In this document: piece after piece, positions 7,539-61,600 of the stretch
Numbering within the stretch: position 1 is the first letter of the stretch
How the letters are laid out: each line of letters opens with the position of its first letter
Virus record (IMG/VR): IMGVR_UViG_3300035670_000062
Span: 49,099 to 113,098 of that record
Source: a virus
DNA length: 64,000 nucleotides
Direction: 5' to 3' (one strand)
Program-made: the position numbers and the translations under genes
The notes under the pieces: generated by a model
The model's input: the letters and a program-made list of their open reading frames with translations, nothing else
Told to the model about the DNA's origin: nothing
Database searches by the model: none

Positions 7539-7797
7539 AAGTTTATTTATTATGATCCATCAAATAGTTACATTTGGTGGAGGTGGGTATGATTTTGAAA
7601 CAGTATATAGAATGCCTATTTGGTTAAGAAAATTTACATACTTACAAATAGTAGAACAAAAACAAGCTGAAAAAGAAGAAATAAACAAAGTAAAAAATAA
7701 ATCAAATTCAAATCAAACAAAATTTAATTTGGGAGATAAAGTCCCTCAACAATTAAAACAAACAAACAACACATACAACACAACAATGAAAAAATAA
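7471..7797 (+). CDS. Baseplate hub/tail assembly chaperone (T4 gp51-like); start uncertain
   Basis: Y..MPIWLRK motif; overlaps the end of the gp26-like gene and precedes the tape measure. Confidence 0.6.
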   Translation: MVQRRVQCLLRQDFFGLTLEYRKSLFIMIHQIVTFGGGGYDFETVYRMPIWLRKFTYLQIVEQKQAEKEEINKVKNKSNSNQTKFNLGDKVPQQLKQTNNTYNTTMKK

Positions 7798-7819
7798 AGC
7801 CCTAAATAGGGCTTTTTTT
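7796..7819 (+). terminator. Rho-independent terminator AAAGCCCT-AAAT-AGGGCTTT+T run
   Basis: Perfect stem plus T-tract; identical copy at 13087. Confidence 0.8.
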
Positions 7820-7843
7820 GTCTATTTATAATAAAATAAAGAT

Positions 7844-10210
7844 ATGGCTGATTCTGAAGAAATAGAAAGAAATAAAGCATTACAAGAATCATTAGATTTA
7901 ATGGATGAATTATTATTTGCAAGTAGGGATTTTACCTCAGAAGTTAGAAAAGTTGCTAAATTACATTTCCAAAATAATGAACAAGTAAATGCTACTGTAA
8001 AAGGATTTAGAGATATTTCAAAATCAGTAGCTTCATATTCTACTATTATTAAAGATGTTTATAAAGGAACAGCATCAATAAGAACTCTTGAAAAAGAACA
8101 AGAAAAATTTTTAAAAACTAGAAAAAACTTTGAAGTCGAATTCAATCAAGCTCTTGGTTCAATAAAACTCACAGAAGAACAAATTAATAAAATAAAAAAA
8201 GGACAATTAGATGTATTTGCTGCTATAGGGGATAAGGGAAGTGAATTTGGAGATCAAACTAATAAGCTTACAGAAGTACAATTTTCACTTTTAGAATTAT
8301 ACCAGGAACAATTAAGTATATTAAGGGAAGAGAATGAAGCAATGGAAGAGGCTTCTCGAAGAGCTAAAAATATTGAAGCATCTATGGGAGGGGTAGGAAC
8401 TGCATTTGAAGGAATAGAAGGAGTCATGGATAAACTTGGACTTGGAAGTTTAAGTAAAAAAATGGGATTTGCTAAAGCACAAGCAGACATGAAAGAACTA
8501 GCAGCAGAGATTACAGATGGTGGAGATAGAAGTGCTACATTAGGAGAAAAATTTAAAATAGCAGGAGCAGGTATAAAATCCATGGCTTCAAGTTTAGCAT
8601 CAGCTTTTGGACCTATGGCTATAGCATTGATTGTTATAACACAAATAGTAAAAGCATTTAAGGCATTAGATGAACAATCAGGAAAACTAGCTAAAAGTAT
8701 GGGTATATCATATAATGAAGCAGTAAATCTAAATGCAGAATTTAGAGACATGGCTTCTAATTATGGAGATTCACTAGTTACTTCTAAAGATATAGCAGAG
8801 TCCCAATCTAAATTAAACGAATTATTTGGAACAGGAGTTAAATTTTCAGGAGAAATGGCTGCTGAATTCTCATCAGTCCAAAAAAGATTAGACTTGTCAG
8901 ATGAAGCTATGAAATTATTTACTAAAAATCAATTAATTTCTGGTAAAAGTATTAAAACTCAATTAAAAGATGTCAATGCTACTACATTAAAAATGAATGA
9001 ACAATATGGTTTAGGTTTAAGTTTTAAACAAGTTCAAGAAGGTATAAGCAAAGCATCTAACGCAGTACAATTAACAAATAAAGGAAATGTAAAAGAACTT
9101 ACAAAAGCTGTTTTTGCTGCTAAAAATTTAGGAGTAGAAATGTCTAAAGTAGAAGCTATATCAAACAGTTTATTAGATTTTGAATCTTCAATAGCATCTG
9201 AACTTGAAGCTGAATTACTGTTAGGTAAAGACATAAATCTTGAAACAGCTAGACAAGCAGCATTACAAGGAGATGTAGCTAAAGTAGCTGATGAAGTTAT
9301 GAAAAATAAAGCTATAATGAATGCTTTCGACACTAAAAATGTTATAGCACAAGAAGCAGCAGCTAAAGCATTAGGTATGAATAGAGATGAATTAGCTGAC
9401 ATGATAATGCAACAAAAACAATTAGAAGGTATAAGAAAAAATGGCTTTGAAAATATGGCCGCTGCTCAGGAAGAATATAATAAATTAAGAGCACAAGGCA
9501 TGTCTGCCGAGGAAGCAGCAGCTAAAATAGGAGATAAATCATTACAAGATCAACTAGAATCAGTGTCAGTAGCACAAAACCTTGAAGCAGTAATGGCTTC
9601 TATACAAGAAATATTTGTAGGTATGGTTGAACCTATATTGATGGCAGTAAATTCAATGATAGAATTAGTTGGTGGAGCTGATAATTTGGCTGCTATATTA
9701 GTAACAATATTAGGTATTTACACAGCTATAAAATTAGCTATACTAGGAGCTAATATGGCGGCAACTATAGGATTAGCTCTTAAGAAAAAAGAAGTAAAAG
9801 AAGAAAAATCAAAAGCATTAGCATCAGCTGGCAGTATTACTTCAGCTTTTATTCTAAATCCAATAGCAGCAGGTATTGGATTAATAGCAGGATTAGCAGC
9901 AACAGCCTTGGTTATTAGTCAAATGAAAGATGGTATGATTGATCCTAAAGGAGGAATGATAGTTTCAGGAGAAAAAGGTACAATCCAATTAGATAAAGAA
10001 GATAGTATAATAGCAGGAACAAATTTATTTGGAGGAGGAAATGGAAAAAATCAAACATCAAATAACAATCAAGATAATTCTCAAATAATAGCCCTACTCC
10101 AACAACAAAACCAACTACTGAGACAAATGTTATCTAAATCTACAACATTAGAAATGAATGGAGATAAAGTAGGTCAAGGTATCCAAAAGGCAGACAGAGC
10201 AATACAATAA
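7844..10210 (+). CDS. Tail tape measure protein
   Basis: 788 aa, Ala/Gly-rich and helical, with hydrophobic segments; follows the chaperone genes. Confidence 0.85.
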   Translation: MADSEEIERNKALQESLDLMDELLFASRDFTSEVRKVAKLHFQNNEQVNATVKGFRDISKSVASYSTIIKDVYKGTASIRTLEKEQEKFLKTRKNFEVEFNQALGSIKLTEEQINKIKKGQLDVFAAIGDKGSEFGDQTNKLTEVQFSLLELYQEQLSILREENEAMEEASRRAKNIEASMGGVGTAFEGIEGVMDKLGLGSLSKKMGFAKAQADMKELAAEITDGGDRSATLGEKFKIAGAGIKSMASSLASAFGPMAIALIVITQIVKAFKALDEQSGKLAKSMGISYNEAVNLNAEFRDMASNYGDSLVTSKDIAESQSKLNELFGTGVKFSGEMAAEFSSVQKRLDLSDEAMKLFTKNQLISGKSIKTQLKDVNATTLKMNEQYGLGLSFKQVQEGISKASNAVQLTNKGNVKELTKAVFAAKNLGVEMSKVEAISNSLLDFESSIASELEAELLLGKDINLETARQAALQGDVAKVADEVMKNKAIMNAFDTKNVIAQEAAAKALGMNRDELADMIMQQKQLEGIRKNGFENMAAAQEEYNKLRAQGMSAEEAAAKIGDKSLQDQLESVSVAQNLEAVMASIQEIFVGMVEPILMAVNSMIELVGGADNLAAILVTILGIYTAIKLAILGANMAATIGLALKKKEVKEEKSKALASAGSITSAFILNPIAAGIGLIAGLAATALVISQMKDGMIDPKGGMIVSGEKGTIQLDKEDSIIAGTNLFGGGNGKNQTSNNNQDNSQIIALLQQQNQLLRQMLSKSTTLEMNGDKVGQGIQKADRAIQ

Positions 10211-12737: not shown

Positions 12738-13089
12738 AAATAAACAAATAAACATGAAAAAATCAGAACTAAGACAAATCATTAAAGAAGAAATTTCTAA
12801 AGTATTAAAAGAAGATACAAATACTGAAGTCCAAATAACTCCATATTATGATTTTTATAAAATAATTTTTCCATCAGGATTCGAAGATGAATTTTTCGAA
12901 TCTAAAGATGAAACTAAATTATTTACAGATACAATAATGGGAAACAACCATTATAATAAATTAATTGATAATTTAAAGAAGAACAATATTCCATATAAAG
13001 AAAGAAAAGCAAGATTAGATAATTCTGTTAGAATAGAAATACCTAGAACTTTATGAAATTAGATGAATTTAACAGAATAAACATATAAA
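12708..13089 (+). repeat. 31-bp direct repeat (12708-12738 / 13059-13089) flanking a leader-gene cassette
   Basis: TTAGATGAATTTAA(T/C)AGAATAAACATATAAA, one mismatch; duplicates the 3' end of the gp53-like gene. Confidence 0.9.
12754..13056 (+). CDS. Leader-bearing hypothetical protein (MKKSELRQIIKEEISKVLKE)
   Basis: Shared leader; flanked by direct repeats. Confidence 0.8.
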   Translation: MKKSELRQIIKEEISKVLKEDTNTEVQITPYYDFYKIIFPSGFEDEFFESKDETKLFTDTIMGNNHYNKLIDNLKKNNIPYKERKARLDNSVRIEIPRTL

Positions 13090-13110
13090 GCCCTAAATAG
13101 GGCTTTTTTT
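13087..13110 (+). terminator. Rho-independent terminator identical to 7796-7819
   Basis: AAAGCCCTAAATAGGGCTTTTTTT followed by TATTTATA at 13114. Confidence 0.8.
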
Positions 13111-13133
13111 ATCTATTTATAATAAAATCAGGT

Positions 13134-33800: not shown

Positions 33801-34190
33801 ATGAGTGATAACTTTAACCTACAGAAATTCTTAAAAAAGAATACTCTACTAACAGAAAATAAAAACATCCCTTCATCATCTCAATTGAAAGAAGATATAC
33901 TAAGAAAACATCTTAGAGAAGAAATTCAATCTATTATGAGAGAAGAAAGTGATTTATATGAAGCTGAAGAAGATACAGAAGAATTAGATAATGAATTAGA
34001 TAATATACTTGATGATGAAGAATCAATAGATGGTGAAGTAAACCCAGATGTATCTGAATTACAAGATTTATTAACACAAGCTCAAGCAAAAGCTGAAGCT
34101 ATTGGAGATAAAAAATTAATAGACCAAATAGGAAATACAATTACTTTCTTTACTAGAGCTCATGTAGTAAAATCTGATGGAACAAGATAA
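33801..34190 (+). CDS. Acidic hypothetical protein with a MSDNFNLQKFL..N.LLTE leader
   Basis: Leader is shared with the next ORF. Confidence 0.7.
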   Translation: MSDNFNLQKFLKKNTLLTENKNIPSSSQLKEDILRKHLREEIQSIMREESDLYEAEEDTEELDNELDNILDDEESIDGEVNPDVSELQDLLTQAQAKAEAIGDKKLIDQIGNTITFFTRAHVVKSDGTR

Positions 34191-34798
34191 TGGAAAATTT
34201 TGATTTAATTAAATACTTAAATAATAACTTATTATTAGAGTCTGAAGATTCAATAGTAGATAAAGTTGTTGATGAAATAGATGATGAAATGGATTTAATT
34301 TTAAAATCTATTGAATCTGAATTAAAAAAGAAATCAACAGAAGATAACTTGAATGAAGGTTTTATGACTATTGTTGGTGTAGGTTTAGCTTTACCTGCTA
34401 TATTAGGTATAGTAGCTAAAATAGGTAAAAAAGCAGGGCAAGTTATTAGTAAGATGGTAGGTAAAAAACCAACAGATAAAGATGAAGTTGATAAATGGTT
34501 TAATAGATTATCAAAAATAGCAGATGAATTACATCATTTATATATGGTTCCTTTAGAATCATTAATGAGTAAATTCATTAAAGATAAGAAAAAAGCAAAA
34601 AAAGCAGCTCATCTATTGTTTCATGTAATAATAGCAATATTCCTTATATCAGCAGGTACTACTGCAGTAAAAGCATTTCAAGCAAAAAACATAAGTTTAA
34701 CAACATTAGAAGGAGTATTAACTGCTATTAAAAGTGGTGAATTAACTACATTTATAGGAAATGCATTAGAAATAGCATCTGAATCTCCTATAGATTAA
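34190..34798 (+). CDS. Hypothetical protein with a MENFDLIKYL..N.LLLE leader and hydrophobic helices
   Basis: Leader, then an internal LNE followed by a Gly/Ala-rich hydrophobic helix. Confidence 0.7.
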   Translation: MENFDLIKYLNNNLLLESEDSIVDKVVDEIDDEMDLILKSIESELKKKSTEDNLNEGFMTIVGVGLALPAILGIVAKIGKKAGQVISKMVGKKPTDKDEVDKWFNRLSKIADELHHLYMVPLESLMSKFIKDKKKAKKAAHLLFHVIIAIFLISAGTTAVKAFQAKNISLTTLEGVLTAIKSGELTTFIGNALEIASESPID

Positions 34799-37133: not shown

Positions 37134-37976
37134 ATGAATCTTAAAAATTTACAACAACTCATAAAAGAAGTTCTTTTTGAAGAAAAAACAAAACGGGATA
37201 GATGTCTTCGTATAGCAGACAAAAAATTTGATAAACCATCAGCTTATAAATCAGGAGCAGTAGTTAGATGTAGAAAAGGTGATATTTGGAAAGGATTAAA
37301 AGAAGCCAAAGAATTAAACGTCCAAGATATAGCATACCAACAAACACCAGGCTTATTAGAAAAAGGGATTAAATATGAATTAGCTCATTTTAGGGGATTT
37401 ATGAAATCCTTTTATAAATGGAGTGGTCCAAAAGATAGAAATGATTTTTTTGATTTTATAGAAAATGTAAAAGGAGAAATAAAACGAGTTCCTTTATCAT
37501 CTATAAAACCTTCCCAACTTGATAAAGACTACAAAAACCCATCTTCAGAATACGAAGCAGAAGAATTTCAAAAAATATTATCAGATGAAAAGGATGCTAA
37601 AGACCATAGAATGGCAGATTTTTATCCTATATTAGTTAATAAAAGAGATAATAAAATAATAGATGGTAATCATAGACATTATGCATTATCTGCTATAAAT
37701 TCACCATATGCTGTAGTATTGCATGTAGATGTACCTAAACAATATTTAAATGAAGATGAATCACTTCATAAATGGTTTAAACGCTCAGGCACACCAGGTA
37801 AAGAGGGTGGTTGGGTTGATTGTAATGCTCCAATTCGTAAAGATGGTGAAATAACAGGATATAAATCATGTGGTAGAAAAGAAGACGAGAAACGTGCAAA
37901 ATATCCTTCATGTCGTCCTACACCATCTCAATGTAAAACACCTGGTAAAGGTACTAAATGGGGTAAAACAAAATAA
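37134..37976 (+). CDS. Multidomain protein with a central ParB/Srx-like domain
   Basis: PILV..KIIDGNHR..AL. Flanking small Cys/basic modules are delimited by LFE, LKE and LNE. Confidence 0.65.
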   Translation: MNLKNLQQLIKEVLFEEKTKRDRCLRIADKKFDKPSAYKSGAVVRCRKGDIWKGLKEAKELNVQDIAYQQTPGLLEKGIKYELAHFRGFMKSFYKWSGPKDRNDFFDFIENVKGEIKRVPLSSIKPSQLDKDYKNPSSEYEAEEFQKILSDEKDAKDHRMADFYPILVNKRDNKIIDGNHRHYALSAINSPYAVVLHVDVPKQYLNEDESLHKWFKRSGTPGKEGGWVDCNAPIRKDGEITGYKSCGRKEDEKRAKYPSCRPTPSQCKTPGKGTKWGKTK

Positions 37977-38597
37977 TATATTTACAATAAAAATATGAAA
38001 AAATCTGAATTAAGACAAATTATTAAGGAGGAAATTATAAGAGAGTTATTTGATACAAAAGAAAAAATCAGATGGCGTGAGGGTGAAGATTCAGATTTCA
38101 CTGCTACCTTTACTGGTCCTAACGATCAGAAATACGTAATAGACATTACTTCCTTAGAATGGTTAACATTACCTAATAGTGCTACTATTACTGCAAGTAA
38201 ACTTTTACCTGACGCAGCTATTGAAATGTGGGAAGACGGTCAAGGATATCATGTTGAATTTAGAGATGTTAAGAAAGGTAAAGGTATTACTGGGTTAGGT
38301 GGTACTGATACAGCAAAAATCTTCGGTATTGTTATTAATGCGTTAGTTGATAAAATGAAACGTGAAAAGGCTGAGCTTGTATTCTTTTCAGCCAAAGAGC
38401 CTTCTAGAAAAGAGTTGTATAAAAAAATAGCACCACTTATAGCAACTAAGTTAGGAATGAAGCAAGTTAATAATGGTACCTATTATTTTTTATATCTTTA
38501 AATTATGAGAAAATACATAAAAATAAGAGTGGATGTAGAGGACCTCTATGTAAAACACCTGGTAAAGGTAAAAAAATGAGGTAAAATAAAATAATAT
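37931..38597 (+). repeat. ~50-bp imperfect direct repeat (37931-37979 / 38548-38597) flanking a leader-gene cassette
   Basis: ATGTAAAACACCTGGTAAAGGTA is identical for 23 bp, then ..AAATG.GGTAAAA.AAAATAATAT. Confidence 0.9.
37995..38501 (+). CDS. Leader-bearing hypothetical protein (MKKSELRQIIKEEIIRE)
   Basis: Shared leader; flanked by direct repeats. Confidence 0.8.
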   Translation: MKKSELRQIIKEEIIRELFDTKEKIRWREGEDSDFTATFTGPNDQKYVIDITSLEWLTLPNSATITASKLLPDAAIEMWEDGQGYHVEFRDVKKGKGITGLGGTDTAKIFGIVINALVDKMKREKAELVFFSAKEPSRKELYKKIAPLIATKLGMKQVNNGTYYFLYL

Positions 38598-40886: not shown

Positions 40887-41717
40887 ATGACAAAGATATA
40901 TCTTGTAACAAACTGTTATGGAGATCCTAATAAAGTTTATATAGGAAAAACTAAAGTTTGTAGAAAACAACCCCATAAAAAAACATATGGTAAACAGATT
41001 GAATATACTTACATAGATGAAGTGGATAGTCTAGATAGACAACATTGGAAGCCCTTGGAAAGTTATTGGATAGAACAATTTAGACAATGGGGATTTGATA
41101 TACAAAATAAAAATAAAGGAGGTGGTGGATTAGAATTCCACACAGAAGAAACCAAACAATACTTTTCCTCAACCAGAAAAGGTAAACCTAAACCATCAAC
41201 CTCAAAAGCTCACAAAGGAAGAACAAGCCCAAATAAAGGTAAGGGTAAAAAAATTCTTCAATACGATCTAACAGGAAAATTCATATCTGAATGGAATAAC
41301 ATAAATGAGGCTATTATTACTCTAGGTCTTACAGTAAATAATGAAAGTATCCGCCAATGCTTAAAAGGAAAAGCAAAAAAATCATCTGATTATATATGGA
41401 GATATTATATTAATGATTATCCTATACAATTAGATTATGATGAAGTAGAATATATTTTAAAAAATACTCAAGGCCCCAAAGGTCAAAAACTCAATACTGG
41501 GAGTAAAATTAGTAAAGCACTAACAGGAAGACATTTATCATCACAACATATAAAAAAGATAAGTAAACCTGTAGCTCAATATGATAAACAAGGTAACTAT
41601 ATTACTCAATATAATAGTATAACAGAAGCATCATCATCCACAAATGCATGGAATATAACTTCATGCTGTAAAGGATATAAAAAAACATCAGGAGGGTACA
41701 TTTGGAGATATATATAA
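40887..41717 (+). mobile_element. Free-standing homing endonuclease (GIY-YIG-like + NUMOD DNA-binding repeats)
   Basis: KIYLVT..KVYIGKT N-terminus; HTEETK (NUMOD3-like); two QYD..G..I....SI.EA....I..C.KG..K....YIWRY NUMOD1-like domains. Confidence 0.85.
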
Positions 41718-48585: not shown

Positions 48586-49440
48586 ATGAATAAAATTAAA
48601 CATTCCAAGCTCAAAAACTCAGGAATTCTGTTTGAATTATTAGTTAGGACTATTACATCTGATACCTTAAATGGTAAAGAATCACCAGCTAAAGATATAC
48701 TTAAAGAATATTTTGTAAAAACAGAATTAGGTAAGGAATATAAATTATATGATTATTTAATTAAAAAAAATAACCTAACAGAATCTAAAGCTAATATGGT
48801 TATCAATACTGTATTAGAAAGTTATAATAAATTAAATAAAAAATCGATAAGTAGACAAAAATATAATTTAATAAAAGAAATTAAAAAACATTATGATTTA
48901 GATGAATTTTTTAAACATAAATTAAATGATTATAAAGTTCAAGCAGCCATATATACATTACTGGAATTAAAATCAAACTCAGTAGATAATATTGAACAAG
49001 AAATTACAAATAAATACACAATATTAGAACATTTATCATCAAGTAAATTAACTGATAAAAAAAATAATATTTTAATTAATGAATTTTCTCAATATGATAA
49101 AGATTTAAGAATATTGACATATAAAATATTACTTGAAAAATTCAATGAGAAATATGATGGTTTATCTTCACCACAGAAAAATATACTTAAAGAATTGATT
49201 ATGTCATTAGATAATACACCTAAATTAAAGGAGTTTTATAATAATGAAATAAAATCAATCAAAACTACACTCTTATCATTAAATGAAAATATGAAAGATA
49301 AAGTAGTCAAAATAAAAATTGATGAAATATTAAATATATTACAACCAAAAGATAAATTATGTAAGGTAAAAGATGATGACCTTATAAATTTATTACAATA
49401 TCATGATTTAATTAATGAATTATCTCAAGTAAATGTATAA
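48586..49440 (+). CDS. Hypothetical head-module protein
   Basis: KHSK.KN.GILFELL N-terminus; lies between portal and protease. Confidence 0.7.
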   Translation: MNKIKHSKLKNSGILFELLVRTITSDTLNGKESPAKDILKEYFVKTELGKEYKLYDYLIKKNNLTESKANMVINTVLESYNKLNKKSISRQKYNLIKEIKKHYDLDEFFKHKLNDYKVQAAIYTLLELKSNSVDNIEQEITNKYTILEHLSSSKLTDKKNNILINEFSQYDKDLRILTYKILLEKFNEKYDGLSSPQKNILKELIMSLDNTPKLKEFYNNEIKSIKTTLLSLNENMKDKVVKIKIDEILNILQPKDKLCKVKDDDLINLLQYHDLINELSQVNV

Positions 49441-50059: not shown

Positions 50060-52558
50060 ATGAAAAATACACTTACAGAACAATACAGACTTATTAAAAT
50101 AGGTAAAGGAAATAAAGAAACTTTTTTAAAGGAAGCTAAATCATTATTCCCTAACTTACTTACAAATAGTTCAACATATAATGAAACTGAAAAGATTTTA
50201 AAACAAAAGGGAGTAATATCTGAAAATATTCATAGTTTGAATCCTATTGCATTTCCTACTACTAAAAAAGAATCATATGAAATAGCATTTAGTAAATTCT
50301 TAAAAGAAGCTAAAAAGGAAGAACCTAAAACTGAAACTTACGACAATAAGAATACTAAAAATTCTAATAACTTAATATTCGACCAAATAATGAGAGGATG
50401 TTATGTTGAAGCTAAAGTTGAGAAAAATAAAGACAAGACAATAGATGAAATTAAAGACATTGTTGTTAAAAATTTACAAAAAGATCCTATTTATTATACT
50501 AAAAATGGTGCTTTTGGTGAAGAAGGATTAGGATATGAAACTGAAGTTCCTGGTTTAGGTACTCCAAAAGAGGCTAAAGGTAAGTATAAATCAAGTGGAT
50601 ATGGTGATTTAAAAGAAAATACTACAAGATTATTTTATAGGATTCCTAATGAAATAAAAAATTTAGAAAAATATGGAGTAAAAATTACTATAGACCCTAA
50701 AAATACAGTTTCACCAATTCAAAGAATAGGAGTACCTGTAAATTTAGATGATGAAATATATGATAAAATAGAAGATATTCTATATAGATATAATTTAAAA
50801 CCCAAAAAATATTTTATCACACAAAAAGGCGTAAACGAAAACAAAGACACTGAAATTAAAATAGGAGACATTCTTATTAAAAATGGAAAAAAAGGAAAAG
50901 TTATAAAAGTGATGGATGATATGGTTAATGTTGATTTTGGTAACGGGGATGTTTACGGTATTACTTTAAGTAGAATTAAAGGAAATGAAATAGTAAACGA
51001 AAACAAAGATGCTGAAGTTTATGCTAAGAAAAAAGGTTTTACCACAAAAAAAGGATTAAATGAAAATAATAATTTAAAAGAAGGTAATGATTTTGGTGGA
51101 GCTGGTTTAATAGTTGTGGGTCGTACTCCAATAGATAATGATTTAATAGACCAAGCTGTAGAAGAAAGTGGTTTTTACGGAATATTTAATGCTAGAGAAA
51201 ATTATTGGTTTTTTCCTGAAGGTGAAGAAACAATAGATAGGCTAGAAAATGAATTAGAAACTATTTTTATTAAAAAAGGAATTAATGCTAGATTTGAAGG
51301 TCAATTTAATGAAAATAAAACAAACAATCAACCTAAATTCAAAAAAGGTGACAAAGTAACTTACCTAGGCCATCCAGGTGAAATTACTGCTGTTAATAAA
51401 GAAATGACTGGTGCTATTACATATAATGTTGCTTATAATAAAGGAACAGGTAGAACTAAAGCAACAAACATCTATAACAAAGATGGTGAAATTAAACCTT
51501 TAAATGAATCAAATTCAGAATATTTAGATAAATTATATGATATAATTTTAAAATATGTTAAAGATCCTGACGAAGCAGAACAAGAATTAGATGGATATAT
51601 AAGTCAAGGATGGAGTGGATTTTCAAATATGTTAATGTCTAATCTAAATAAAGATATGGATTTTATATCATTAACCCAACAAGGACATGATAAAGACATT
51701 CAAAGAAGAGAATCTGGATTAAATGAATCATATGGTTCAAATGGTGACTTTGATGGTACTGGTTTAATAGTAGTAGGTCGCACCCAAATAGATAATAATG
51801 AAATTGGAGATGTAATTGAAGATTTAGGTTATTATGGAGTATGGAATTCAAGAGAAGGATATTGGTTTATACAAGAAGATAAACCAACTCTTAGTTATTT
51901 AGAAGCTGATTTAGATGAAGAATTTGCTAAACGAGATATTAATGCTAGATTTGAAGCTCAATTTGGAGAGGATGAAATAGATTACGATGATGAAAATTTC
52001 TCAGACCCCCTAATAGATGGTGAAGAAGATTTATTTGAAAGTAAATGGAGAAAAACACAAAAAGAAAAAATAGTTAAAGAAAATATAAATAAAGAAATTA
52101 CCCAAATTAACAAAGATGCGGAATCAGAAGTTTTAGAAAGTAAATTATCTAAAATAAATGATGCTATTGAAAAAAGGGAATCTAAATTATCTAAAATAAA
52201 TGAAGATGAAGATTTAAAAGGATTAACTGACAATAAAAAAATTAAATCTCTACAAAAGGAAATAAAAACTTTAGAAAAACATAAATCTAAAATCGAGAAA
52301 CAATTAAATAAAGGCTCAAAACAAAACAAACCTAAGGAAATCAATGATGAAATCATAGATGAAACTGAGGGATTGAATTTCGAATATAAAGATTATTTTA
52401 ATTTAAACGAATCGATAGAGGAACAATTATCTTCAACACAAGAATCATTATTTACTTTAATCGAGGATTTATATGATGAATTAGGTAGCATGGATGAAGT
52501 AAAAAAATTAGTTAATTCTGCTTTAAACAACGTCGCTTTAAAATTTGGTGATTATTAA
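50060..52558 (+). CDS. Modular polyprotein-like head-associated protein
   Basis: Many short modules joined at (L/V/F)NE or LKE; duplicated GLIVVGRT..INARFE domain; immediately upstream of the prohead protease. Confidence 0.7.
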   Translation: MKNTLTEQYRLIKIGKGNKETFLKEAKSLFPNLLTNSSTYNETEKILKQKGVISENIHSLNPIAFPTTKKESYEIAFSKFLKEAKKEEPKTETYDNKNTKNSNNLIFDQIMRGCYVEAKVEKNKDKTIDEIKDIVVKNLQKDPIYYTKNGAFGEEGLGYETEVPGLGTPKEAKGKYKSSGYGDLKENTTRLFYRIPNEIKNLEKYGVKITIDPKNTVSPIQRIGVPVNLDDEIYDKIEDILYRYNLKPKKYFITQKGVNENKDTEIKIGDILIKNGKKGKVIKVMDDMVNVDFGNGDVYGITLSRIKGNEIVNENKDAEVYAKKKGFTTKKGLNENNNLKEGNDFGGAGLIVVGRTPIDNDLIDQAVEESGFYGIFNARENYWFFPEGEETIDRLENELETIFIKKGINARFEGQFNENKTNNQPKFKKGDKVTYLGHPGEITAVNKEMTGAITYNVAYNKGTGRTKATNIYNKDGEIKPLNESNSEYLDKLYDIILKYVKDPDEAEQELDGYISQGWSGFSNMLMSNLNKDMDFISLTQQGHDKDIQRRESGLNESYGSNGDFDGTGLIVVGRTQIDNNEIGDVIEDLGYYGVWNSREGYWFIQEDKPTLSYLEADLDEEFAKRDINARFEAQFGEDEIDYDDENFSDPLIDGEEDLFESKWRKTQKEKIVKENINKEITQINKDAESEVLESKLSKINDAIEKRESKLSKINEDEDLKGLTDNKKIKSLQKEIKTLEKHKSKIEKQLNKGSKQNKPKEINDEIIDETEGLNFEYKDYFNLNESIEEQLSSTQESLFTLIEDLYDELGSMDEVKKLVNSALNNVALKFGDY

Positions 52559-52578: not shown

Positions 52579-53211
52579 ATGAATAGAACATTATTAATAG
52601 AAACTAATATATTAGTACCTTCATTATTAAAAGAAGAAAATTCTAATAATAATGGAAATATATTCATTGAAGGTATATTAGCTACCTGTGAAGTTGAAAA
52701 TGGAAATGGTAGATATTACCCTAGAGAATTATGGGAGAGAGAAATTAAAATCTTCGAAAATAAAATAAAAGCAGGTTCAACTGAATGCGCAGGGGAATTA
52801 GATCACCCTCAATCAGAAATAATCAATCTAAATAATGTATCTCATGCTATTAGAAAAGTATGGTGGAATGGAGATAAAATTATGGGATTAATAGAAATAT
52901 TCTCAGATCAGGGTCCTAAAGGAACTACAGCAGGAAGAATAGCAGGAGCATTAATTAGAAATAATCTATCAGTAGGTGTAAGTAGTAGAGGGATGGGTTC
53001 ATTAACTGAAGTAAATGGAGTAATGGAAGTTCAAGATGATTTTTCATTATTATGTTGGGATTTAGTATCAAACCCATCAAACCCAAACTCATGGATGAAG
53101 GAATCAAAAGGTTCATTAAATGAATCTAGATTATCTTCAATAGATAAGTATTCTAAAGTAAATTCTATTATAACAGAAATATTATGTTCTAATGGAATGT
53201 GTAAAATTTAA
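52579..53211 (+). CDS. Prohead core protease (T4 gp21-like)
   Basis: NGNGRYYP, GELDHP, VSH, GVSSRGMGS and WDLVSNPS motifs. Confidence 0.95.
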   Translation: MNRTLLIETNILVPSLLKEENSNNNGNIFIEGILATCEVENGNGRYYPRELWEREIKIFENKIKAGSTECAGELDHPQSEIINLNNVSHAIRKVWWNGDKIMGLIEIFSDQGPKGTTAGRIAGALIRNNLSVGVSSRGMGSLTEVNGVMEVQDDFSLLCWDLVSNPSNPNSWMKESKGSLNESRLSSIDKYSKVNSIITEILCSNGMCKI

Positions 53212-54363: not shown

Positions 54364-56016
54364 ATGTCACAATTAAATTCATTATTAGAAAGTGCATCTC
54401 AAAGTTTCAAAAATTTGAACAACGATGCAGCTAGACTAGCTAAAAAATGGTCAGCAACAGGTCTATTAGAAGGCCTAAGTAACGAGAACGAAAGAAACAG
54501 TATGTCTATGTTACTTGAAAACCAAGCTAAACAATTAGTATTGGAATCAAACAGTACAAACCAAGGTGGAGCTACCTTTTCAGGAGGTGGTCAAGGTGAA
54601 CAATGGAATGGAATTGCATTACCATTAGTGAGAAAAGTATTTGGACAAATATCTTCCAAAGAATTTGTTTCATTACAAACAATGAACATGCCTTCAGGTC
54701 TTGTATTTTACTTGGATTTCCAGTATGGACAATCAAAAAGACCAAATTTTGGACCTTCAGGAGACGTATTTGCTGAAACTTCATCATTATATGGTAACAC
54801 AAACCCAGGTGCTGCTGCAAACCCAGCAGGAGGTATGTATGGTGCTGGAAGATTTGGTTATTCAATTAATCAATTTAAAGCTACTGTAACTTCAAGTAAC
54901 GTAACTACAAGTTCTGCAGATTGGGTAGATGTTGATTATGATGCTGCTTTATCAGCTTCAATTGCTGCTGGTGATTTGACAAAAATTACTATCCCAATTT
55001 CTGGTTCATTAACTAGACCTGATTTGAAAGGTGTAAGAGCATTTAGTGTGTCTGCTTCTACTGCAAATCCTGCATTCTTATTACCTGCTTACACTTCAAC
55101 TGATGGAACTAACATTACGTTTGTATTTGCTTCAGGTTCAGGTGTAGCTCAAGGTGGTGTAGACGTATACTACAACCAACAACCAGTTGATAACAACAGA
55201 GGTGATTTTGAAGATGTAACAAACGGTGGTTTCCCTAATGCTCAATCTCAAACAGAACTTTCAATCCCATCAATTGATGTGAAAATGAAATCTGAAGCTA
55301 TTGTTGCTAAAACAAGAAAATTAAAAGCACAATGGACACCTGAGTTTGCTCAAGATTTGAATGCATACCAAGCATTAGACGCAGAAGCAGAATTAACTTC
55401 AATCATGAGTGAGTATATTTCAATGGAAATTGACTTAGAAATCTTAGACATGTTGATTCAAGATGCTTCAGGTTTCGATGAATATTGGAATGCTTCAAAC
55501 AACCAACAATTGAATGCTGCTAAAACAGGATACGATAACTTAGGTTTCTATAACACTCAAGGTCAATGGTTCCAAACATTAGGTACTAAATTACAAAAAG
55601 TAAGCAACAAAATCCATACTAAGACTATGAGAGGAGGAGCTAATTTCATGGTAATTAGCCCAACTGTAGCTACAATCATTGAATCAATTCCTGGATTTGC
55701 TTCAAACGCTGATGGTGATGCTGCTAAAAACAAATTTGCATTCGGTATCCAGAAAATGGGTCAAATGAATAGCAGATATGATGTATACAAAAACCCTTAC
55801 ATGTCTGAAAACGTGATTTTAATGGGTTATAGAGGTAGCCAATTCTTGGAAGCTGGTGCGGTATTTGCTCCATATGTTCCATTAATCCAAACACCTTTAG
55901 TATACGATCCAGATACCTTCACTCCAAGAAAAGGTATGTTAACAAGATATGCTAAGAAAATGATAAGACCAGAATATTATGGACGTGTATTCGTTTCTAA
56001 TACTGAGTTAGTTTAA
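54364..56016 (+). CDS. Major capsid protein (T4 gp23-like)
   Basis: KW...LLEG, LLENQ, LPLVRKVF, Q.M..PSGLVF, AKTRKLKAQWT.E.AQDL and APYVPL..F.P.KG..TRY motifs. Confidence 0.97.
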   Translation: MSQLNSLLESASQSFKNLNNDAARLAKKWSATGLLEGLSNENERNSMSMLLENQAKQLVLESNSTNQGGATFSGGGQGEQWNGIALPLVRKVFGQISSKEFVSLQTMNMPSGLVFYLDFQYGQSKRPNFGPSGDVFAETSSLYGNTNPGAAANPAGGMYGAGRFGYSINQFKATVTSSNVTTSSADWVDVDYDAALSASIAAGDLTKITIPISGSLTRPDLKGVRAFSVSASTANPAFLLPAYTSTDGTNITFVFASGSGVAQGGVDVYYNQQPVDNNRGDFEDVTNGGFPNAQSQTELSIPSIDVKMKSEAIVAKTRKLKAQWTPEFAQDLNAYQALDAEAELTSIMSEYISMEIDLEILDMLIQDASGFDEYWNASNNQQLNAAKTGYDNLGFYNTQGQWFQTLGTKLQKVSNKIHTKTMRGGANFMVISPTVATIIESIPGFASNADGDAAKNKFAFGIQKMGQMNSRYDVYKNPYMSENVILMGYRGSQFLEAGAVFAPYVPLIQTPLVYDPDTFTPRKGMLTRYAKKMIRPEYYGRVFVSNTELV

Positions 56017-56042
56017 TCATTTAAAACATAACTGAAAAGAAG

Positions 56043-56071
56043 GAGCCAAGTAAATACTTGGCTCTTTTTTT
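56043..56071 (+). terminator. Rho-independent terminator after the major capsid gene
   Basis: GAGCCAAGT-AAAT-ACTTGGCTC plus T-tract. Confidence 0.85.
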
Positions 56072-56131
56072 ATATGTAAACATTTGGTTACTTTAAAGAA
56101 AATTCATATATTTATAATAAAAAATAACAAA

Positions 56132-56764
56132 ATGAAAAAAAGCGAATTAAGACAACTAATCAAAGAAGAAATCTCTAAAATAAAAGAAATTGATAGCTAT
56201 GGTAAAATAGGAAAACAATACCCAGCCCCAGAGTATGAAGATGAACTTAAAGGGAAACTAACTAATCAAAAAAGATTGTTAAGAAAAAAGATGAGCCAAG
56301 ATAAATTTGCTAAAATAACAAAAGATTTATTTGATGATGCTTCTAAAGGATTAATTTTCATCTCAGACTACCCTAAGGATAATAAATATTCTGCACTTTT
56401 TGTAGATGAAAATAGTAAATATAAAAATCTTTTAACAGGAAAAGAAAATTATGGTTTAAATGATATACCCTATACATATAATAAAGCTTTACCAAAATCC
56501 GAAGCTATTACTCCTCCACATAAATTAGATATAAGGACTTTCCGCAAAATAATTTATGGTGTGCTTACATCTGGCCCTGGCGAGACATTTTACATTACTA
56601 ATTTCCTCCCAGACTCAGTTACTGGTATTGGAGATATGATTCAAGTGGGAAGAGGTGGATATGTAGTAGAAAAATCAAAATTTAAGAGAGAAAGTAGTGA
56701 TTATGGTTTTCCACAAGAATTAGGTAATGGTTTAGCATATGTCCCATTTTTCTTTAGAAATTAA
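56132..56764 (+). CDS. Leader-bearing hypothetical protein (start corrected from 56084)
   Basis: ATG of MKKSELRQLIKEEISKIKE lies downstream of the TATTTATA at 56109. Confidence 0.8.
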   Translation: MKKSELRQLIKEEISKIKEIDSYGKIGKQYPAPEYEDELKGKLTNQKRLLRKKMSQDKFAKITKDLFDDASKGLIFISDYPKDNKYSALFVDENSKYKNLLTGKENYGLNDIPYTYNKALPKSEAITPPHKLDIRTFRKIIYGVLTSGPGETFYITNFLPDSVTGIGDMIQVGRGGYVVEKSKFKRESSDYGFPQELGNGLAYVPFFFRN

Positions 56765-56794
56765 ATAATCATTTAAAACATAACTGAAAAGAAG

Positions 56795-56821
56795 GAGCCA
56801 AGTAAATACTTGGCTCTTTTT
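56795..56821 (+). terminator. Rho-independent terminator (repeat copy 2)
   Basis: Same hairpin as at 56043. Confidence 0.85.
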
Positions 56822-56887
56822 GTCTGTAAATATTTGGTTACTTTAAAGAAAATTCATATATTTATAATAAATAAACAAATAAATACA

Positions 56888-57436
56888 ATGAAAAAAAGCG
56901 AATTAAGACAAATCATCAAAGAAGAGATTTCTAAAGTATTAAATGAGGAAATTGACATATCTACTGAGTTAGTTAAATTTTTCCAAACTAATCCCTTCAC
57001 AAAAGAAAACCAGTGGTCACATGACTATGAAGCTAAAGATTACATTCAAAATGTAATGAATAGACCTTTAACTCCAAAAGAAAAAAGCCAAATTACTAGA
57101 ATGATAAATAAATATCGCGATGATTTTTGGGGAAAAAGTTACAGAGAAGAAAGAGATAAAGAAGATAAAACATCAAAGGAACGTTATTTAAATAATCTTC
57201 TTCCTTTAACTGTAGACAATGGAAGAGGAAGACCAGACAGTACATACTATACTGTAGCTAACACATACTATTATACAGACAACGATGGAAATACATCAAC
57301 TTCCCACATTGACTCTAAAAGTGGATACACTGATTATAAATTAAGAGATAAATGGATAAACACTCCAGTAGACAAAGCAACATTAGACAAATATTGGCAT
57401 CCAGGAACATTAAGAATGATAGGAATAAAAAATTAA
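56888..57436 (+). CDS. Leader-bearing hypothetical protein (start corrected from 56810)
   Basis: ATG of MKKSELRQIIKEEISKVLNE lies downstream of the TATTTATA at 56859. Confidence 0.8.
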   Translation: MKKSELRQIIKEEISKVLNEEIDISTELVKFFQTNPFTKENQWSHDYEAKDYIQNVMNRPLTPKEKSQITRMINKYRDDFWGKSYREERDKEDKTSKERYLNNLLPLTVDNGRGRPDSTYYTVANTYYYTDNDGNTSTSHIDSKSGYTDYKLRDKWINTPVDKATLDKYWHPGTLRMIGIKN

Positions 57437-57466
57437 AATTAAAAATCCTAAGTATAAAATTAAATC

Positions 57467-57494
57467 GAGCCAAGTAAATACTTGGCTTTTTTTT
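57467..57494 (+). terminator. Rho-independent terminator (repeat copy 3)
   Basis: GAGCCAAGTAAATACTTGGCTTTTTTTT. Confidence 0.85.
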
Positions 57495-57553
57495 GTCTGT
57501 AAACATTTAGTTACCCCAAACATTATTCATATATTTATAATAAATAAACATTT

Positions 57554-58249
57554 ATGAGTGATTTCAACAGAACAGAAGAAGCCCAAGAGATTTTCAAAAA
57601 TAAAAGAAAACCAAAGGGACCAATTAAATTCAAGTTAAATTTAAATGAAGAACAAAAACTAGCGAAAGAAGCTATTCTTAACTGTCCTGTAACTTTACTT
57701 AGAGGGATGGCCGGGTCAGGGAAAACTTTAGTCGCATGTCAAATAGCCTTAGATATGCTTTTCAATAAAGAAATCGAAAAAATCATCATCACAAGACCAA
57801 CCGTAGCTAAGGAAGACATTGGTTTTTTACCTGGGGATTTGAAGGATAAGATGGATCCCTGGTTAGCGCCTATATATGCTAATTTAAACATATTATATGA
57901 CAAGGATAAAATCGAAAAATTAGTATCTGAAGAAATGATTGAAATAGTACCATTCGCATTTATGAGGGGTCGTACCTTTTTAAATTCATTTGTTATAGTA
58001 GATGAATGTCAAAATATAACTCATTCTCAAACAGAAATGGTAATTGGAAGATTAGGAAAAGGAGGTAAAATGGTGTTTTGTGGAGATTTATCTCAAGTAG
58101 ATTTAAAAAGCAAGAAAGACTCAGGGATTAGTTTTTTCAATAGATTAGAAGAAAAAAGTAAATATGTAAAAGTAATTACTTTAAAGAAAAACCACAGACA
58201 TGAATGTGTAGAAGATATATTGAAAATATATGAGGAATTTAGAGACTAA
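57554..58249 (+). CDS. phoH: PhoH family ATPase
   Basis: GMAGSGKT, ITRP, IGFLPGDL..K, FMRGRTF, DECQN, RLG and GD..QVDL motifs. Confidence 0.95.
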   Translation: MSDFNRTEEAQEIFKNKRKPKGPIKFKLNLNEEQKLAKEAILNCPVTLLRGMAGSGKTLVACQIALDMLFNKEIEKIIITRPTVAKEDIGFLPGDLKDKMDPWLAPIYANLNILYDKDKIEKLVSEEMIEIVPFAFMRGRTFLNSFVIVDECQNITHSQTEMVIGRLGKGGKMVFCGDLSQVDLKSKKDSGISFFNRLEEKSKYVKVITLKKNHRHECVEDILKIYEEFRD

Positions 58250-58263
58250 ATATTTATAATAAA

Positions 58264-58644
58264 ATGGCTGCAGGAAGATATAGTTTCATAATAGAACAAG
58301 GCTCAACATTAAATCTTGAATTACAATATAAAGACGAAAACGGCGTAGCTATAAATTTGTCAGATTATGGTGGTAAAATGCAATTACGTTCATCAGTTGA
58401 CAGTAATGATATAATATTAGAACTTAGTAGTTCCTTGCAACTTGATGGAACAGGTTTGAATTTTAGTGGCTCTAATGGTCAAACCTCTCCCTCGTCAGGT
58501 TCAATAGGTATTTACATATCTGCTGCTTCATCTTCATTATTAAATTTTGATTCAGCATTGTATGATCTTGAAATTTTTTCAGGTAGTTTTGTAAGTAGAA
58601 TACTAGAAGGTCAAATTAAATTATCTAAAGAAATAACAAGATAA
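58264..58644 (+). CDS. Virion structural/adaptor protein (tail-fibre associated)
   Basis: IEQGST..., NLSDY..KMQLR and YDLEI..RILEG...LSKEITR pattern. Confidence 0.65.
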   Translation: MAAGRYSFIIEQGSTLNLELQYKDENGVAINLSDYGGKMQLRSSVDSNDIILELSSSLQLDGTGLNFSGSNGQTSPSSGSIGIYISAASSSLLNFDSALYDLEIFSGSFVSRILEGQIKLSKEITR

Positions 58645-61600
58645 TGTCTAAATGCATTACTCCCATTCATATAATTCCAAATAATAATCAAGTAGTATTA
58701 CTTGATAATAATAAAAGTATAACAATAATAGACAATAATTGTTGTACTGAAGTAATAGTCACTCAACCTGTAACTGAAGTAATTCAAGTCCTGACTGGAC
58801 CCATGGGTAAATTCCCAACTGAAGGTCCTTATGGATTTACAGGTTCATTTGACATATCTGGTTCATTTACGACAACAGGAAGTATATATGGAGATATAAT
58901 ATATTCTCCGTATTTTACAGGTTCATTTTTTGGTAATGGAGTAGGATTATTTTCTGGTTCATTTAGTGGTTCTGTGTCTTCAAATTTACAAGAAATAACA
59001 GACAATGGATCAACTACTACTAACGCTATAACGTCGTCAGGTTTATTAACTAATGACATTAATGTAAATGGAAATGTAGTAGTATCAGGTTCACTTTTAG
59101 TTAGTGGTTCGAATACTTTTAAAAATATAGGTCCTGCTCAATTTACAGGTTCTACAGACATAACAGGAAGTTTAAGTGTAAATGGAGTAGACTATGAGTT
59201 TACTTCTGCTTCATTAGATCAAAGAATTATAAATAATTCGTCTTCAATTACTTTTTTAAGTAGCAGTTACTTAAATTCAAGTGCTTCATTTAATACTCGT
59301 ATATTAAACAACAGTTCTAGTATAAGTTTACTGTCAGGAAGCTTTTTAAATTTTAGTGGTAGTTACGTTACACATAGCTCGAGTTTTAACACAAGAATAT
59401 TAAACAATAGCTCAAGTATTTCATTATTATCTGGTAGTTATTTAACAGACTCTGCATCATTTAATACTAGAATATTAAACAACAGTTCTAGTATATCTAC
59501 TTTATCTAGTAGTTTTTTGTCATTTTCTTCAAGTTATCTTGTAGACAGTTCTAGTTTTAACATTCGTATAGTAAACAACAGTTCTAGTATTAATATATTG
59601 TCAGGTAGTTATCTTACTGATTCTGCATCATTTAATACACGTATATTAAATAATAGTTCTAGCATTTCTTCCTTGTCAGGAAGTTTTGTAGGATTTAGTG
59701 GTAGTTATGTAGCTGACTCAGCTTCATTTAATACACGCATATTAAATAACAGTTCAAGTATCAATATACTGTCGGGAAGTTATTTAACTGATTCTGCATC
59801 ATTTAATACACGCACATTAAATAATAGTTCTAGTATTTCTACTTTATCTAGTAGTTTTATTGGATTTAGTGGTAGTTATGTAAATGACAGTAGTTCTTTT
59901 AATGTTCGAATAATAAACTTAGAAAATTTTAGTTCTTCATTAGATGCTACTTTTGCAACTGACACTGAATTAAATGCTGCAACTGCCTCATTAAGTAGTT
60001 CTATTTCATATTTAAGTAGTAGTTATTTAAATTCAAGTGCTTCATTTGACATAAGAATATTAAACAACAGTTCAAGCATAAACTTACTGTCAGGTAGTTT
60101 TATTGGATTTAGTGGTAGTTATGTGAATGACAGTTCAAGCTTCAACACAAGAATATTAAACAATAGCTCAAGTATAACAGCGGTTTCCTCAAGCCTATCT
60201 ATATTCAGTGGAAGTTATGTTTTAGACTCGGCTTCGTTTGATACACGTATATTAAACAACAGTTCAAGTATTGACATATTGTCAAGTAGTTTTGAAACAT
60301 TTACTCAAATATACAATACAGGTTCATTTACAGGTTCATTTACAGGTTCATTGTTAGGTACTGCTTCATGGGCTATAAATGCTCAAACAGCATCTTACGT
60401 TTTACCTCTAAATCAAGACGTAATAATAAATGGTTCTCTTAATGTAACAGCATCTTTTACAGCAAGTGGATTAATATATCCCTCAGCAGATAATGGTGAA
60501 GAATCATTTATACAAACTGATGGAAATGGCAACTTATCTCTACAGTATGTAAAAACAATTTACGAAGAGATTATAAATGGTGAATCAACTCAACTCGTAA
60601 AAGGAACACCAGTATACGTTTCAGGTTCACAAGGGGCAGCTTCTATTGTGTTTCGTGCAGATCCAACTAATCCATCTAAAATACCTGCTGTTTATATATC
60701 TGCAGACACATTAGCTGCAGGTGAATCTGGTCGTGGAATTGCTTTAGGACTGATTAAAGGAGTTGACACAACAGGCTTCCCAGCAGGTACTGAAATATAC
60801 CTAGCATCTGGAGGTGGATGGACATCTACTCGCCCAACAGGTTCAACAGCTGTTCAAGTATTAGGATACGTAACAAAAGAAGGAAATGGAGGTCAAGGTG
60901 TTGTATTTAATAGGGGCTTAGCTAATTTACCAAATCTAAACTCAGGATCAGTTTGGGTAGGAAATCAAGACAGTACACCAGTTGCTGTTCCTACATCAAG
61001 TTTAAGTGTTGCTAGTTCGTCGTTTTCTGTAAACGCTCAAACAGCATCATTTGCACCAAATTACACTTTAACATCATCATTTAATGTTTTTACTAGTTCA
61101 TATAATACTGGATCATTTACAGGTAGCTTCATTGGAACGGCTGATTTACCAGATTTAACACAAGGTGTAGGTATTGATGTATTTACTTACGACGGTAGTA
61201 CAACTGCCACAGTAGCCGTATCTGGAGCAAATGCTTTAAATGCCGATACCATAACTAAATGGACTGGTGATGCATTTGCAAATACCAACATTAAAGACAA
61301 TGGTAGTCAAGTTGAAATTAGTTCTTCATTCTATGTGACTGGATCTAATATAGCAATTGAAACAGATCTTTTTACTGTAGGAGGTATTCCTGGAATTACT
61401 GCATTAAATATTGATTTAGGCGAGCTTTCTATATATGATTCATCAGGAAATCTTTCAATTCAAGCTCCAAATAGAATTTTATACGACGCAACAGAAGTAG
61501 ATTCTTTAGACTGGAACAACCGTCAATTACTTAAATCAGACGGAACAACAGTATCGTTTGATTGGGAAAATGGTCAATTTGTTAGTGATTTAAGTGTAAC

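Follow-up and report, generated by a model that had tools for sequence, protein, structure and literature searches.

A putative PeSL-like cassette array directly behind the major capsid gene of an uncultured T4-like phage

Promoter early stem-loops (PeSLs) are composite elements of T4-type phages that combine a stem-loop with an early promoter, and a version built on a middle promoter (PmSL) is known as well (PMC2839356, PMC4122927). They are found at the breakpoints of insertions and deletions between closely related T4-type phages and form mini-circles (PMC2839356, PMC4122927); phage RB49 carries an open reading frame (ORF) between two PeSLs, and phi1 has a single PeSL (PMC2839356). The authors of that work liken the cassettes to integrons and report that structural regions have fewer such groupings (PMC4122927). 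PeSL-like elements are also present at the polymorphic internal-protein loci of T-even phages (PMC2839356, Discussion), whose capsid targeting sequence is credited to Repoila et al. 1994, as far as PMC2839356, PMC4122927 and PMC3012670 relay that study. Here, we analyzed 64,000 nt of viral DNA (IMG/VR record IMGVR_UViG_3300035670_000062, positions 49,099 to 113,098; this whole stretch is called the window, and its own numbering is used unless stated otherwise), in which an array of units with a terminator-like hairpin, a promoter-like motif and a leader-bearing gene directly follows the major capsid protein (MCP) gene. We consider this array, with moderate confidence, a PeSL-like recombination cassette array that stands close to the T-even internal-protein loci.

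The array occupies the + strand between the T4 gp23-type MCP gene (54364..56016; Pfam PF07068 Gp23, E 1.4e-71) and a gene for a PhoH-like ATPase (phoH, 57554..58249; Pfam PF02562, E 1.3e-61). Its core is a module in which a hairpin with a T-run is followed after ~44 nt by the motif TATTTATAATAAA and, 9-16 nt further on, by the ATG of the next gene. Three copies are present on the + strand: copy 1 (56014..56124) with a 29-nt flank, the hairpin at 56043-56064, a T-run, TTTG at 56083-56086 and TATTTATAATAAA at 56109-56121; copy 2 (56766..56874) with the hairpin at 56795-56816 and the motif at 56859-56871; and copy 3 (57465..57547), which precedes phoH, with the hairpin at 57467-57488 and the motif at 57532-57544. 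All three hairpins are perfect and 22 nt long, copies 1 and 2 reading GAGCCAAGTAAATACTTGGCTC plus T-run and copy 3 the variant G-AGCCAAGTAAATACTTGGCT-T, and their 18-nt core occurs three times on the + strand compared to 0.01 occurrences expected by chance. The predicted RNA hairpin energies of copies 1, 2 and 3 are -21, -19.7 and -12.2 kcal/mol, respectively (z-scores -6.2, -5.6 and -4.2). A search for the 18-nt core in IMG/VR and JGI metagenome contigs returned 30 loci, none of them related to the module; they were either generic terminators or unrelated sequence. The Rfam matches on the repeats all fell far below threshold.

Copies 1 and 2 agree in all 56 nt of positions 56014-56069 and 56766-56821 (100%), a stretch that contains TAATCATTTAAAAC, the TAA of which is the capsid stop codon (56014-56016), just as the first-pass annotation of this DNA had claimed for the start of copy 2. 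The left edge of copy 2 lies 1 nt past the stop codon of the preceding gene. In the 61 nt after the identical stretch the two copies agree at 92%, and the whole repeat (56014-56179 versus 56766-56935) is 90% identical over 172 columns, so that it extends across ~17 codons of the leader. Copy 3 resembles the others from hairpin to motif only (82-88%; 88% to copy 2 over 84 nt), with an unrelated 5' flank. The arrangement TTTG-N20-TATATTTATAATAAA is found in copies 1 and 2, whereas copy 3 has TTTA instead of TTTG.

Each of the first two modules is followed by one gene on the + strand. ORF1 (cassette 1, 56132..56764, 210 aa) begins with the leader MKKSELRQLIKEEISKIKE and continues from IDSYGKIGKQYPAP as orphan cargo; ORF2 (cassette 2, 56888..57436, 182 aa) begins with MKKSELRQIIKEEISKVLNE and has the cargo motifs NNLLPLTxDNGxGxPD and SGYTDY. 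The leader common to both is MKKSELRQ(L/I)IKEE, while the bodies of the two proteins have no BLASTP match to each other. Coordinates and sequence hence bear out the described unit of terminator, promoter, MKKSEL leader and unrelated cargo, which occurs twice, with a third terminator-promoter copy before phoH, and each of the two units is self-contained in carrying its own hairpin, promoter-like motif, leader and cargo. As independent contigs from public runs span the ORF1/copy 2 and the copy 2/ORF2/copy 3/phoH junctions, the array is not an assembly artefact.

Turnover is also indicated by the variability of the interval between MCP and phoH. A survey of this interval in relatives had been set beforehand as the test in which invariance would count against a cassette array, and wide variation was seen. 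Among relatives with 56-62% MCP identity, the backbone consists of MCP, phoH and a homologue of the gene that follows phoH in the window (58264-58644), and the MCP-phoH gap measures anywhere between 98 and 2947 nt; it holds 0-4 ORFs, and at least eight different gene contents are seen when that of the window is included. Relatives at 67-76% MCP identity have neither phoH nor inserts, and their next gene starts ~100 nt past the MCP stop. Since the wider clade has MCP-phoH-next gene as its common backbone, phoH is the ancestral right-hand neighbour of the array, and its proposed role as a third cassette is dropped.

Natural strains differ by one unit. In assembled contigs of run X4, a freshwater metagenome from another study, one contig joins position 56039 to 56793 and extends 134 nt and 624 nt to either side of the joint. 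Over 56314-56715 this run has no contig, while MCP, ORF2 and phoH are present at ~97-99% identity; the X4 strain therefore has a single module and no cassette 1. The difference from the window is exactly one unit with its joint inside the repeat, in agreement with the predicted change of the array by whole units. In run X2, the module behind the MCP gene has exactly the four differences that set copy 2 apart from copy 1, namely three substitutions plus the loss of 2 nt, which reflects either the same deletion form or a conversion of copy 1 by copy 2. A joint in run X1 (56167>56888) and two loose ends in X2 (56127 and 56853) may derive from other promoter- or leader-bearing loci and serve as leads only. 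Cover is low or missing over ORF2 in run X5 and over 57520-57720 in X2; no contig joins across these regions, and we do not interpret them. The order stem-loop-promoter-ATG, the three copies at 82-100% identity and the position of copies at the X4/window breakpoint thus agree, by sequence and fold, with the published description of PeSLs (PMC2839356, PMC4122927), and the analogy drawn in the first-pass annotation holds in this respect.

The module itself appears to be older than the array. We extracted the spacer 3' of the MCP gene from all relatives, which yielded 60 distinct spacers. A perfect hairpin with T-run begins 17-33 nt past the MCP stop in 60/60 of them, and a TATTTAT-like motif follows the hairpin in 49/60; the module is therefore ancestral, being the putative terminator-and-restart spacer of the highly expressed capsid gene. 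The 60 spacers have 41 different stem sequences for this one job, so structure is conserved and sequence is not. Repetition of the same hairpin behind the capsid gene is seen at no relative locus, whereas the present genome has it three times.

These spacers are also an argument for the alternative that fares best, namely that terminator and promoter were reused and kept by selection for their function, play no role in gene movement, and that the genes arrived by illegitimate events or with homing endonucleases. A terminator-plus-promoter spacer is universal behind the capsid gene of this clade, and in relatives with inserts in the interval the hairpin of the second module differs from the first. 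Homing-endonuclease-like genes are found in the interval of relative L042 and elsewhere beside cargo genes, and a loose end of X2, located past the module, encodes MNYQRIYNQ and in this resembles a NUMOD1 endonuclease gene. However, selection for function does not account for the identity of copies 1 and 2 over 56 nt, 29 of which are a flank of no known function, in a clade where 41 different stems do the same job. The X4 difference of exactly one repeat period, with the joint in the repeat, speaks against it as well, and the finding of copy-2 letters next to the X2 capsid gene suggests that copies have exchanged sequence. We therefore regard functional conservation as the whole explanation as unlikely. 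The homing-endonuclease-like genes (NUMOD1 / I-HmuI-like domains) map to window positions 40887-41717, to the 7798-9486 region of L042 and to 2087-2779 of L152; within the window their neighbours are leader genes, and relatives have them in the capsid-phoH interval and beside ORF2-family genes.

The leader that closes the repeat is not confined to the array. MKKSELRQ-type leaders are found on 13 ORFs of the genome, all inside the window, the cargo parts of which are unrelated by BLASTP, as well as on at least 80 different database proteins and on 93 ORFs in 31 IMG/VR loci. Its serine codons vary (AGC, TCA, TCT, AGT), and selection therefore acts on the leader peptide itself. I-K-E is present at residue 12 in 11/13 leaders, and most of the 13 have a second (L/I/V)-x-E at residues 17-20, where the similarity stops. 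A prohead protease of the T4 gp21 type (S77; 52579..53211, + strand; Pfam PF03420, E 1.4e-24) is encoded upstream of the MCP gene, and an S77 protease was present in 3/3 tested leader-bearing records of at least 90% completeness. This enzyme is a candidate for cutting the leaders at (L/I/V)-x-E, and the leader fits a capsid-targeting propeptide like that of the T4 internal proteins (PMC3012670).

Two further observations concern leaders and protease sites. Just upstream of the protease gene, an 832-aa protein (50060-52558) contains eight [LIVF]NE sites, compared to about two expected and a maximum of seven in 500 shuffles; the protein may be a polyprotein cut by the prohead protease, and internal 657-nt repeats are present in it too. 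The adjacent ORFs 33801-34190 and 34190-34798 start with MSDNFNLQKFLKKNTLLTE and MENFDLIKYLNNNLLLE, a second leader class that is also found on the ORF2-family homologues P0108 and P0109.

Both cargo genes belong to families that occur with other leaders. For the ORF1 cargo, six metagenomic homologues (41-54% identity) were found with a different leader, MTQEQLRMQMLAGIITEGQYKEKMEE, and two of them have an extra module between leader and cargo that ends in VNE right before the cargo. The ORF2 cargo has 26 other metagenomic or database homologues (50-81% identity) with invariant blocks and at least four leader types: MKKSELRQ(I/L)IKEE.., MKKEQLKQxIKEEIxKILxE, MxDNFDLKKYLAENKLLKE and ..FRRMQKLAGLLKE. 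In both families the leaders end in (L/I)-x-E just before the conserved cargo. The ORF2-family gene of IMG/VR relatives is mostly located between a GroEL-like and a clamp-loader-like gene, where it starts 1-3 nt past the gene before it and lacks its own module; in locus L157, a gene with the first cargo motif of ORF1 lies directly 3' of it. The cargo relocates within genomes and the leader is swappable between lineages. At L145-L158, a conserved gene of ~324 aa, starting with MKLTD(I/L)L(R/K)E(I/V)E(D/G)E, is found just upstream of the ORF2-family gene.

The nature of the cargo proteins was approached by profile and structure searches. Neither cargo has a match in Pfam or PHROG, and no relative came up when IMG/VR was scanned with ORF1 or ORF2 as single proteins, the ORF2 homologues being recovered by the alignment-based scan only. 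The AlphaFold model of ORF2 (pLDDT 85) gave no Foldseek match at E <= 0.001, and ESM Atlas gave no usable match. The best VIA-align row, a chain of the cyanophage A4 pre-ejectosome (Z 7.3, 67 helix residues), lies below the noise level that the tool states for helical folds and was not used as evidence. Because the ORF1 model was too poor (pLDDT 47), it was not searched.

Taken together, we propose the following model. The spacer behind the MCP gene, made up of an intrinsic terminator and the promoter-like motif of the phage, would act as a recombination hot spot of the PeSL kind. Two foreign genes would have been placed between the MCP gene and phoH, each fused to the N-terminal leader of the lineage. 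Each insertion would have duplicated the spacer, together with the first ~17 leader codons in the case of copies 1 and 2, which would give rise to the terminator-promoter-leader-cargo array. The repeats (~170 nt at 90%, 56 nt of them identical) would be long enough for the general recombination of the phage to delete, add or convert units, and turnover could proceed via unequal exchange or small circles. Insulation by the hairpins and restart at TATTTATAATAAA would mean that both cargo genes are probably expressed together with the structural genes. Prohead proteases of the T4 type cut by the rule (L/I)-x-E, with which the leader terminates; the leader would most likely load the cargo into the prohead and then be removed, as in T4 internal proteins.

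Several points weigh against this model. The model leaves unexplained at least one illegitimate joint, which the left edge of copy 2 requires. What X4 shows may be the ancestral state before insertion and not a deletion, and assembled contigs cannot reveal circles or rare variants. The homing-endonuclease-like gene in the capsid-phoH interval of L042 suggests that such genes may drive part of the variability of the interval. Leader genes of relatives are often located among replication genes, and the packaging and removal of the leader are, like the promoter and terminator activity of the modules, their late timing and the recombination route, what we infer from sequence. The motif TATTTATAATAAA lies at distance 0 from some start codons; either the mRNAs would then be leaderless or the motif would not serve as a promoter. 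Finally, PeSLs proper are early or middle elements and are reported to be rare in structural regions (PMC4122927), while the array described here is found right behind the capsid gene.

The promoter-like motif is a feature of the whole phage. The window has 13 exact copies of TATTTATAATAAA, each of them on the + strand at 0-16 nt from the start codon that follows; one of them (58251..58263, + strand), which has no hairpin, abuts the ATG of the conserved gene next after phoH (58264-58644, + strand; MAAG-like), homologues of which are found 3' of the capsid gene or of phoH in relatives. When up to one mismatch was allowed, 22 sites on the + strand fell in the structural half of the genome compared to 5 in the other half, and sites of this type precede portal-region, tail-region and fibre-like genes, among others. 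The non-structural half has eight copies of another composite element, (T)TTG-TTTGGCTCC-N4-GGAGCC-ATTCGTATCTTTA..TATAAGAAACAAATAAAA, ahead of genes (G000:C1 positions 9051, 12477, 22854, 31814, 33229, 33701, 37860 and 45859, all outside the window). Sigma-A promoters of Bacteroidota have TTTG at -33 and TAnnTTTG at -7. The eight-copy element looks like a host-type early promoter of this -33/-7 kind with a conserved hairpin in its spacer, and some of its copies bracket sets of small ORFs in a PeSL-like manner. TATTTATAATAAA differs from the early-type TTTG-N19/20-TATCTTTA of the genome (TTTG-hairpin-TATCTTTA), yet copies 1 and 2 of the array also have TTTG-N20-TATATTTA. Judging from this distribution, TATTTATAATAAA probably forms a separate, late class. 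The earlier interpretation of TTTG as a -35 box does not apply to the motif in general, as in a second pair of modules (7785/13076) it lies only 3 nt past the T-run.

That second pair (7785-7837 and 13076-13128) consists of AAAGCCCTAAATAGGGCTTT, a T-run and TATTTATAATAAA, is 92% identical over 53 nt and encloses five genes (5.3 kb), the last of which is the leader gene at 12754; the hairpin centre TAAATA is common to this pair and the capsid array. Another leader gene (37995-38501), which has a TATTTACAATAAA of its own, lies between direct repeats at 37927-37973 and 38544-38590 (47 nt, 79%), which are copies of the 3' end of the upstream gene, and constitutes a second repeat-bounded insertion. 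Similar arrangements were found outside this genome. In relative G002 (155 kb), three small ORFs at L177 (G002:C1:123773-125029), 2/3 of which have leaders of the MKK..L(K/R)..I(I)(K/R)EE type, lie between two copies of a 56-nt hairpin-promoter module (91%), and G001, G010 and G011 also have repeated hairpin modules around small ORFs. Of these four relatives, G001 and G002 were tested for a tyrosine recombinase, and neither has one. Downstream of the array, a fibre-like protein of 1356 aa, rich in S-S-S and N-x-S, contains an imperfect repeat array with a period of 171 nt (96 + 75) at 59214-60328; length variants of this array with joints of 96 nt occur in contigs of public runs.

The term integron-like, used for the array in the first-pass annotation, can be kept as a metaphor only. 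Integrons share with this locus tandem single-gene units that each end in an imperfect or perfect palindrome, and circular single-cassette intermediates are conceivable. They differ in having IntI beside the array, attC architecture and one Pc, whereas the repeats described here are long enough for homologous recombination. No IntI-type integrase was found beside the array, and no attC-type site was seen at the cassette ends when these were read by eye, with no dedicated attC model run. The array stems are perfect 9-bp helices with T-runs, the repeat edges read ..GTT|TAATCA and ..TAAA|TAATCA without GTTRRRY, and each unit has its own hairpin and promoter-like motif, unlike the promoterless cassettes of integrons. 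By these sequence features, the array is not an integron. The genome does encode an Xer-like tyrosine recombinase of 265 aa (G000:C1:167-964, locus L144; PF00589, E 7.7e-35), its only PF00589 protein, ~105 kb from the array in a record that is only ~69% complete. Its best NCBIfam matches are models of the XerA/'integron integrase' type, the best of all being Xer-type, and it scores below every curated cut-off (187.7 versus 220). The integron integrase model TIGR02249 gives 154.6 bits against a cut-off of 265 and covers only model positions 2-181 of 315.

This recombinase enters two further explanations. In the first, the module would be a portable adaptor ('express with head genes, load into capsid'), the turnover of which is aided by the Xer-like recombinase acting on the hairpins. 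If true, any ORF that recombines behind the adaptor would become a virion-delivered protein, and the phage would carry a cargo-diversifying cassette system that goes beyond PeSLs; we consider this combination improbable. In the second, which we regard as still harder to maintain, turnover would be entirely site-specific, and the recombinase would use the palindromic hairpins (arms of 8-11 bp around TAAATA) as IntI uses attC. The type of its best matches would suit such a role, the central TAAATA is found in both late hairpin families of the genome, and five relatives have no tyrosine recombinase, three of them at least 95% complete. However, the low scores and the distance from the array speak against it, the cassette edges misfit G|TTRRRY, and the hairpins look no different from the perfect stems with T-runs that every relative has, singly, behind its capsid gene. 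Moreover, G002 has a duplicated module around three ORFs and no recombinase, and the homology extends far past the hairpin into promoter and leader, as predicted for homologous exchange. That ORF1 and ORF2 are old paralogues from a tandem duplication of one tagged gene, as their adjacency, similar size and common leader and upstream region might suggest, has next to no probability, given cargo without BLASTP similarity between flanks that are 90-100% identical, and a separate homologue family for each cargo that bears other leaders and, for ORF2, stands at other genome positions.

The favoured reading as a PeSL-like cassette array also has to be seen in the context of the phage. The window is the final 64 kb of a linear 113-kb record (27.9% G+C; the completeness given above is an estimate) and encodes, in addition to the T4 gp23-type MCP, the S77 prohead protease and the PhoH-like ATPase, a portal protein. 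An acidic protein encoded between the protease and capsid genes is read as the scaffold from its position and composition. The nearest isolates by MCP are Flavobacterium phage immuto (56% amino-acid identity) and Microcystis phage Mel-JY01, and uncultured relatives in IMG/VR have MCP identities of 56-76%.

Compared with PeSLs, the locus has the same layout, in that a stem-loop is immediately followed by a promoter or promoter-like motif and then by the start of the next gene, and several well-conserved copies are present per genome. The topology of RB49 versus phi1 corresponds to that of the window versus the X4 strain, and homologous exchange, perhaps through mini-circles, has been proposed for PeSLs. 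The PeSL promoter is either early and sigma-70-like or a middle Mot promoter, whereas the array uses a phage-wide motif found mainly before structural genes. Unlike in PeSLs, the repeat reaches into the coding region with the leader, and the carrier is a relative of Flavobacterium phage immuto and not an enterobacterial or Vibrio phage.

The T-even internal-protein loci come closest. To the extent that the sources cover them, they too encode unrelated small proteins with a short common leader between PeSL-like flanks, and their content varies between close relatives; a gp21-type protease is likewise encoded and the leader ends at the protease motif. The T4 capsid targeting leader is MKTYQEFIAE, while the leader described here reads MKKSELRQ(L/I)IKEE... 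and is found on at least 13 tagged genes in 64 kb. The T-even elements are built on early promoters, the present ones on the TATTTATAATAAA motif. The novelty of the idea is thus partial: the principle had been published for the T-even loci (PMC2839356, PMC3012670), and the array differs in its probable promoter class, in its place immediately behind the capsid gene, in having leader codons within the repeat and in phage lineage. As the principle was known from these loci and from PeSLs, the gain lies in breadth and detail and not in a new mechanism. On the favoured reading, PeSL-type shuffling would extend to an uncultured T4-like branch with its nearest isolates on Flavobacterium and Microcystis, and into the structural block, with a repeat that includes coding sequence. 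Two near-identical strains one unit apart add evidence from natural populations, and the same cargo with differing leaders and positions offers a testable picture of how probably virion-delivered proteins are renewed.

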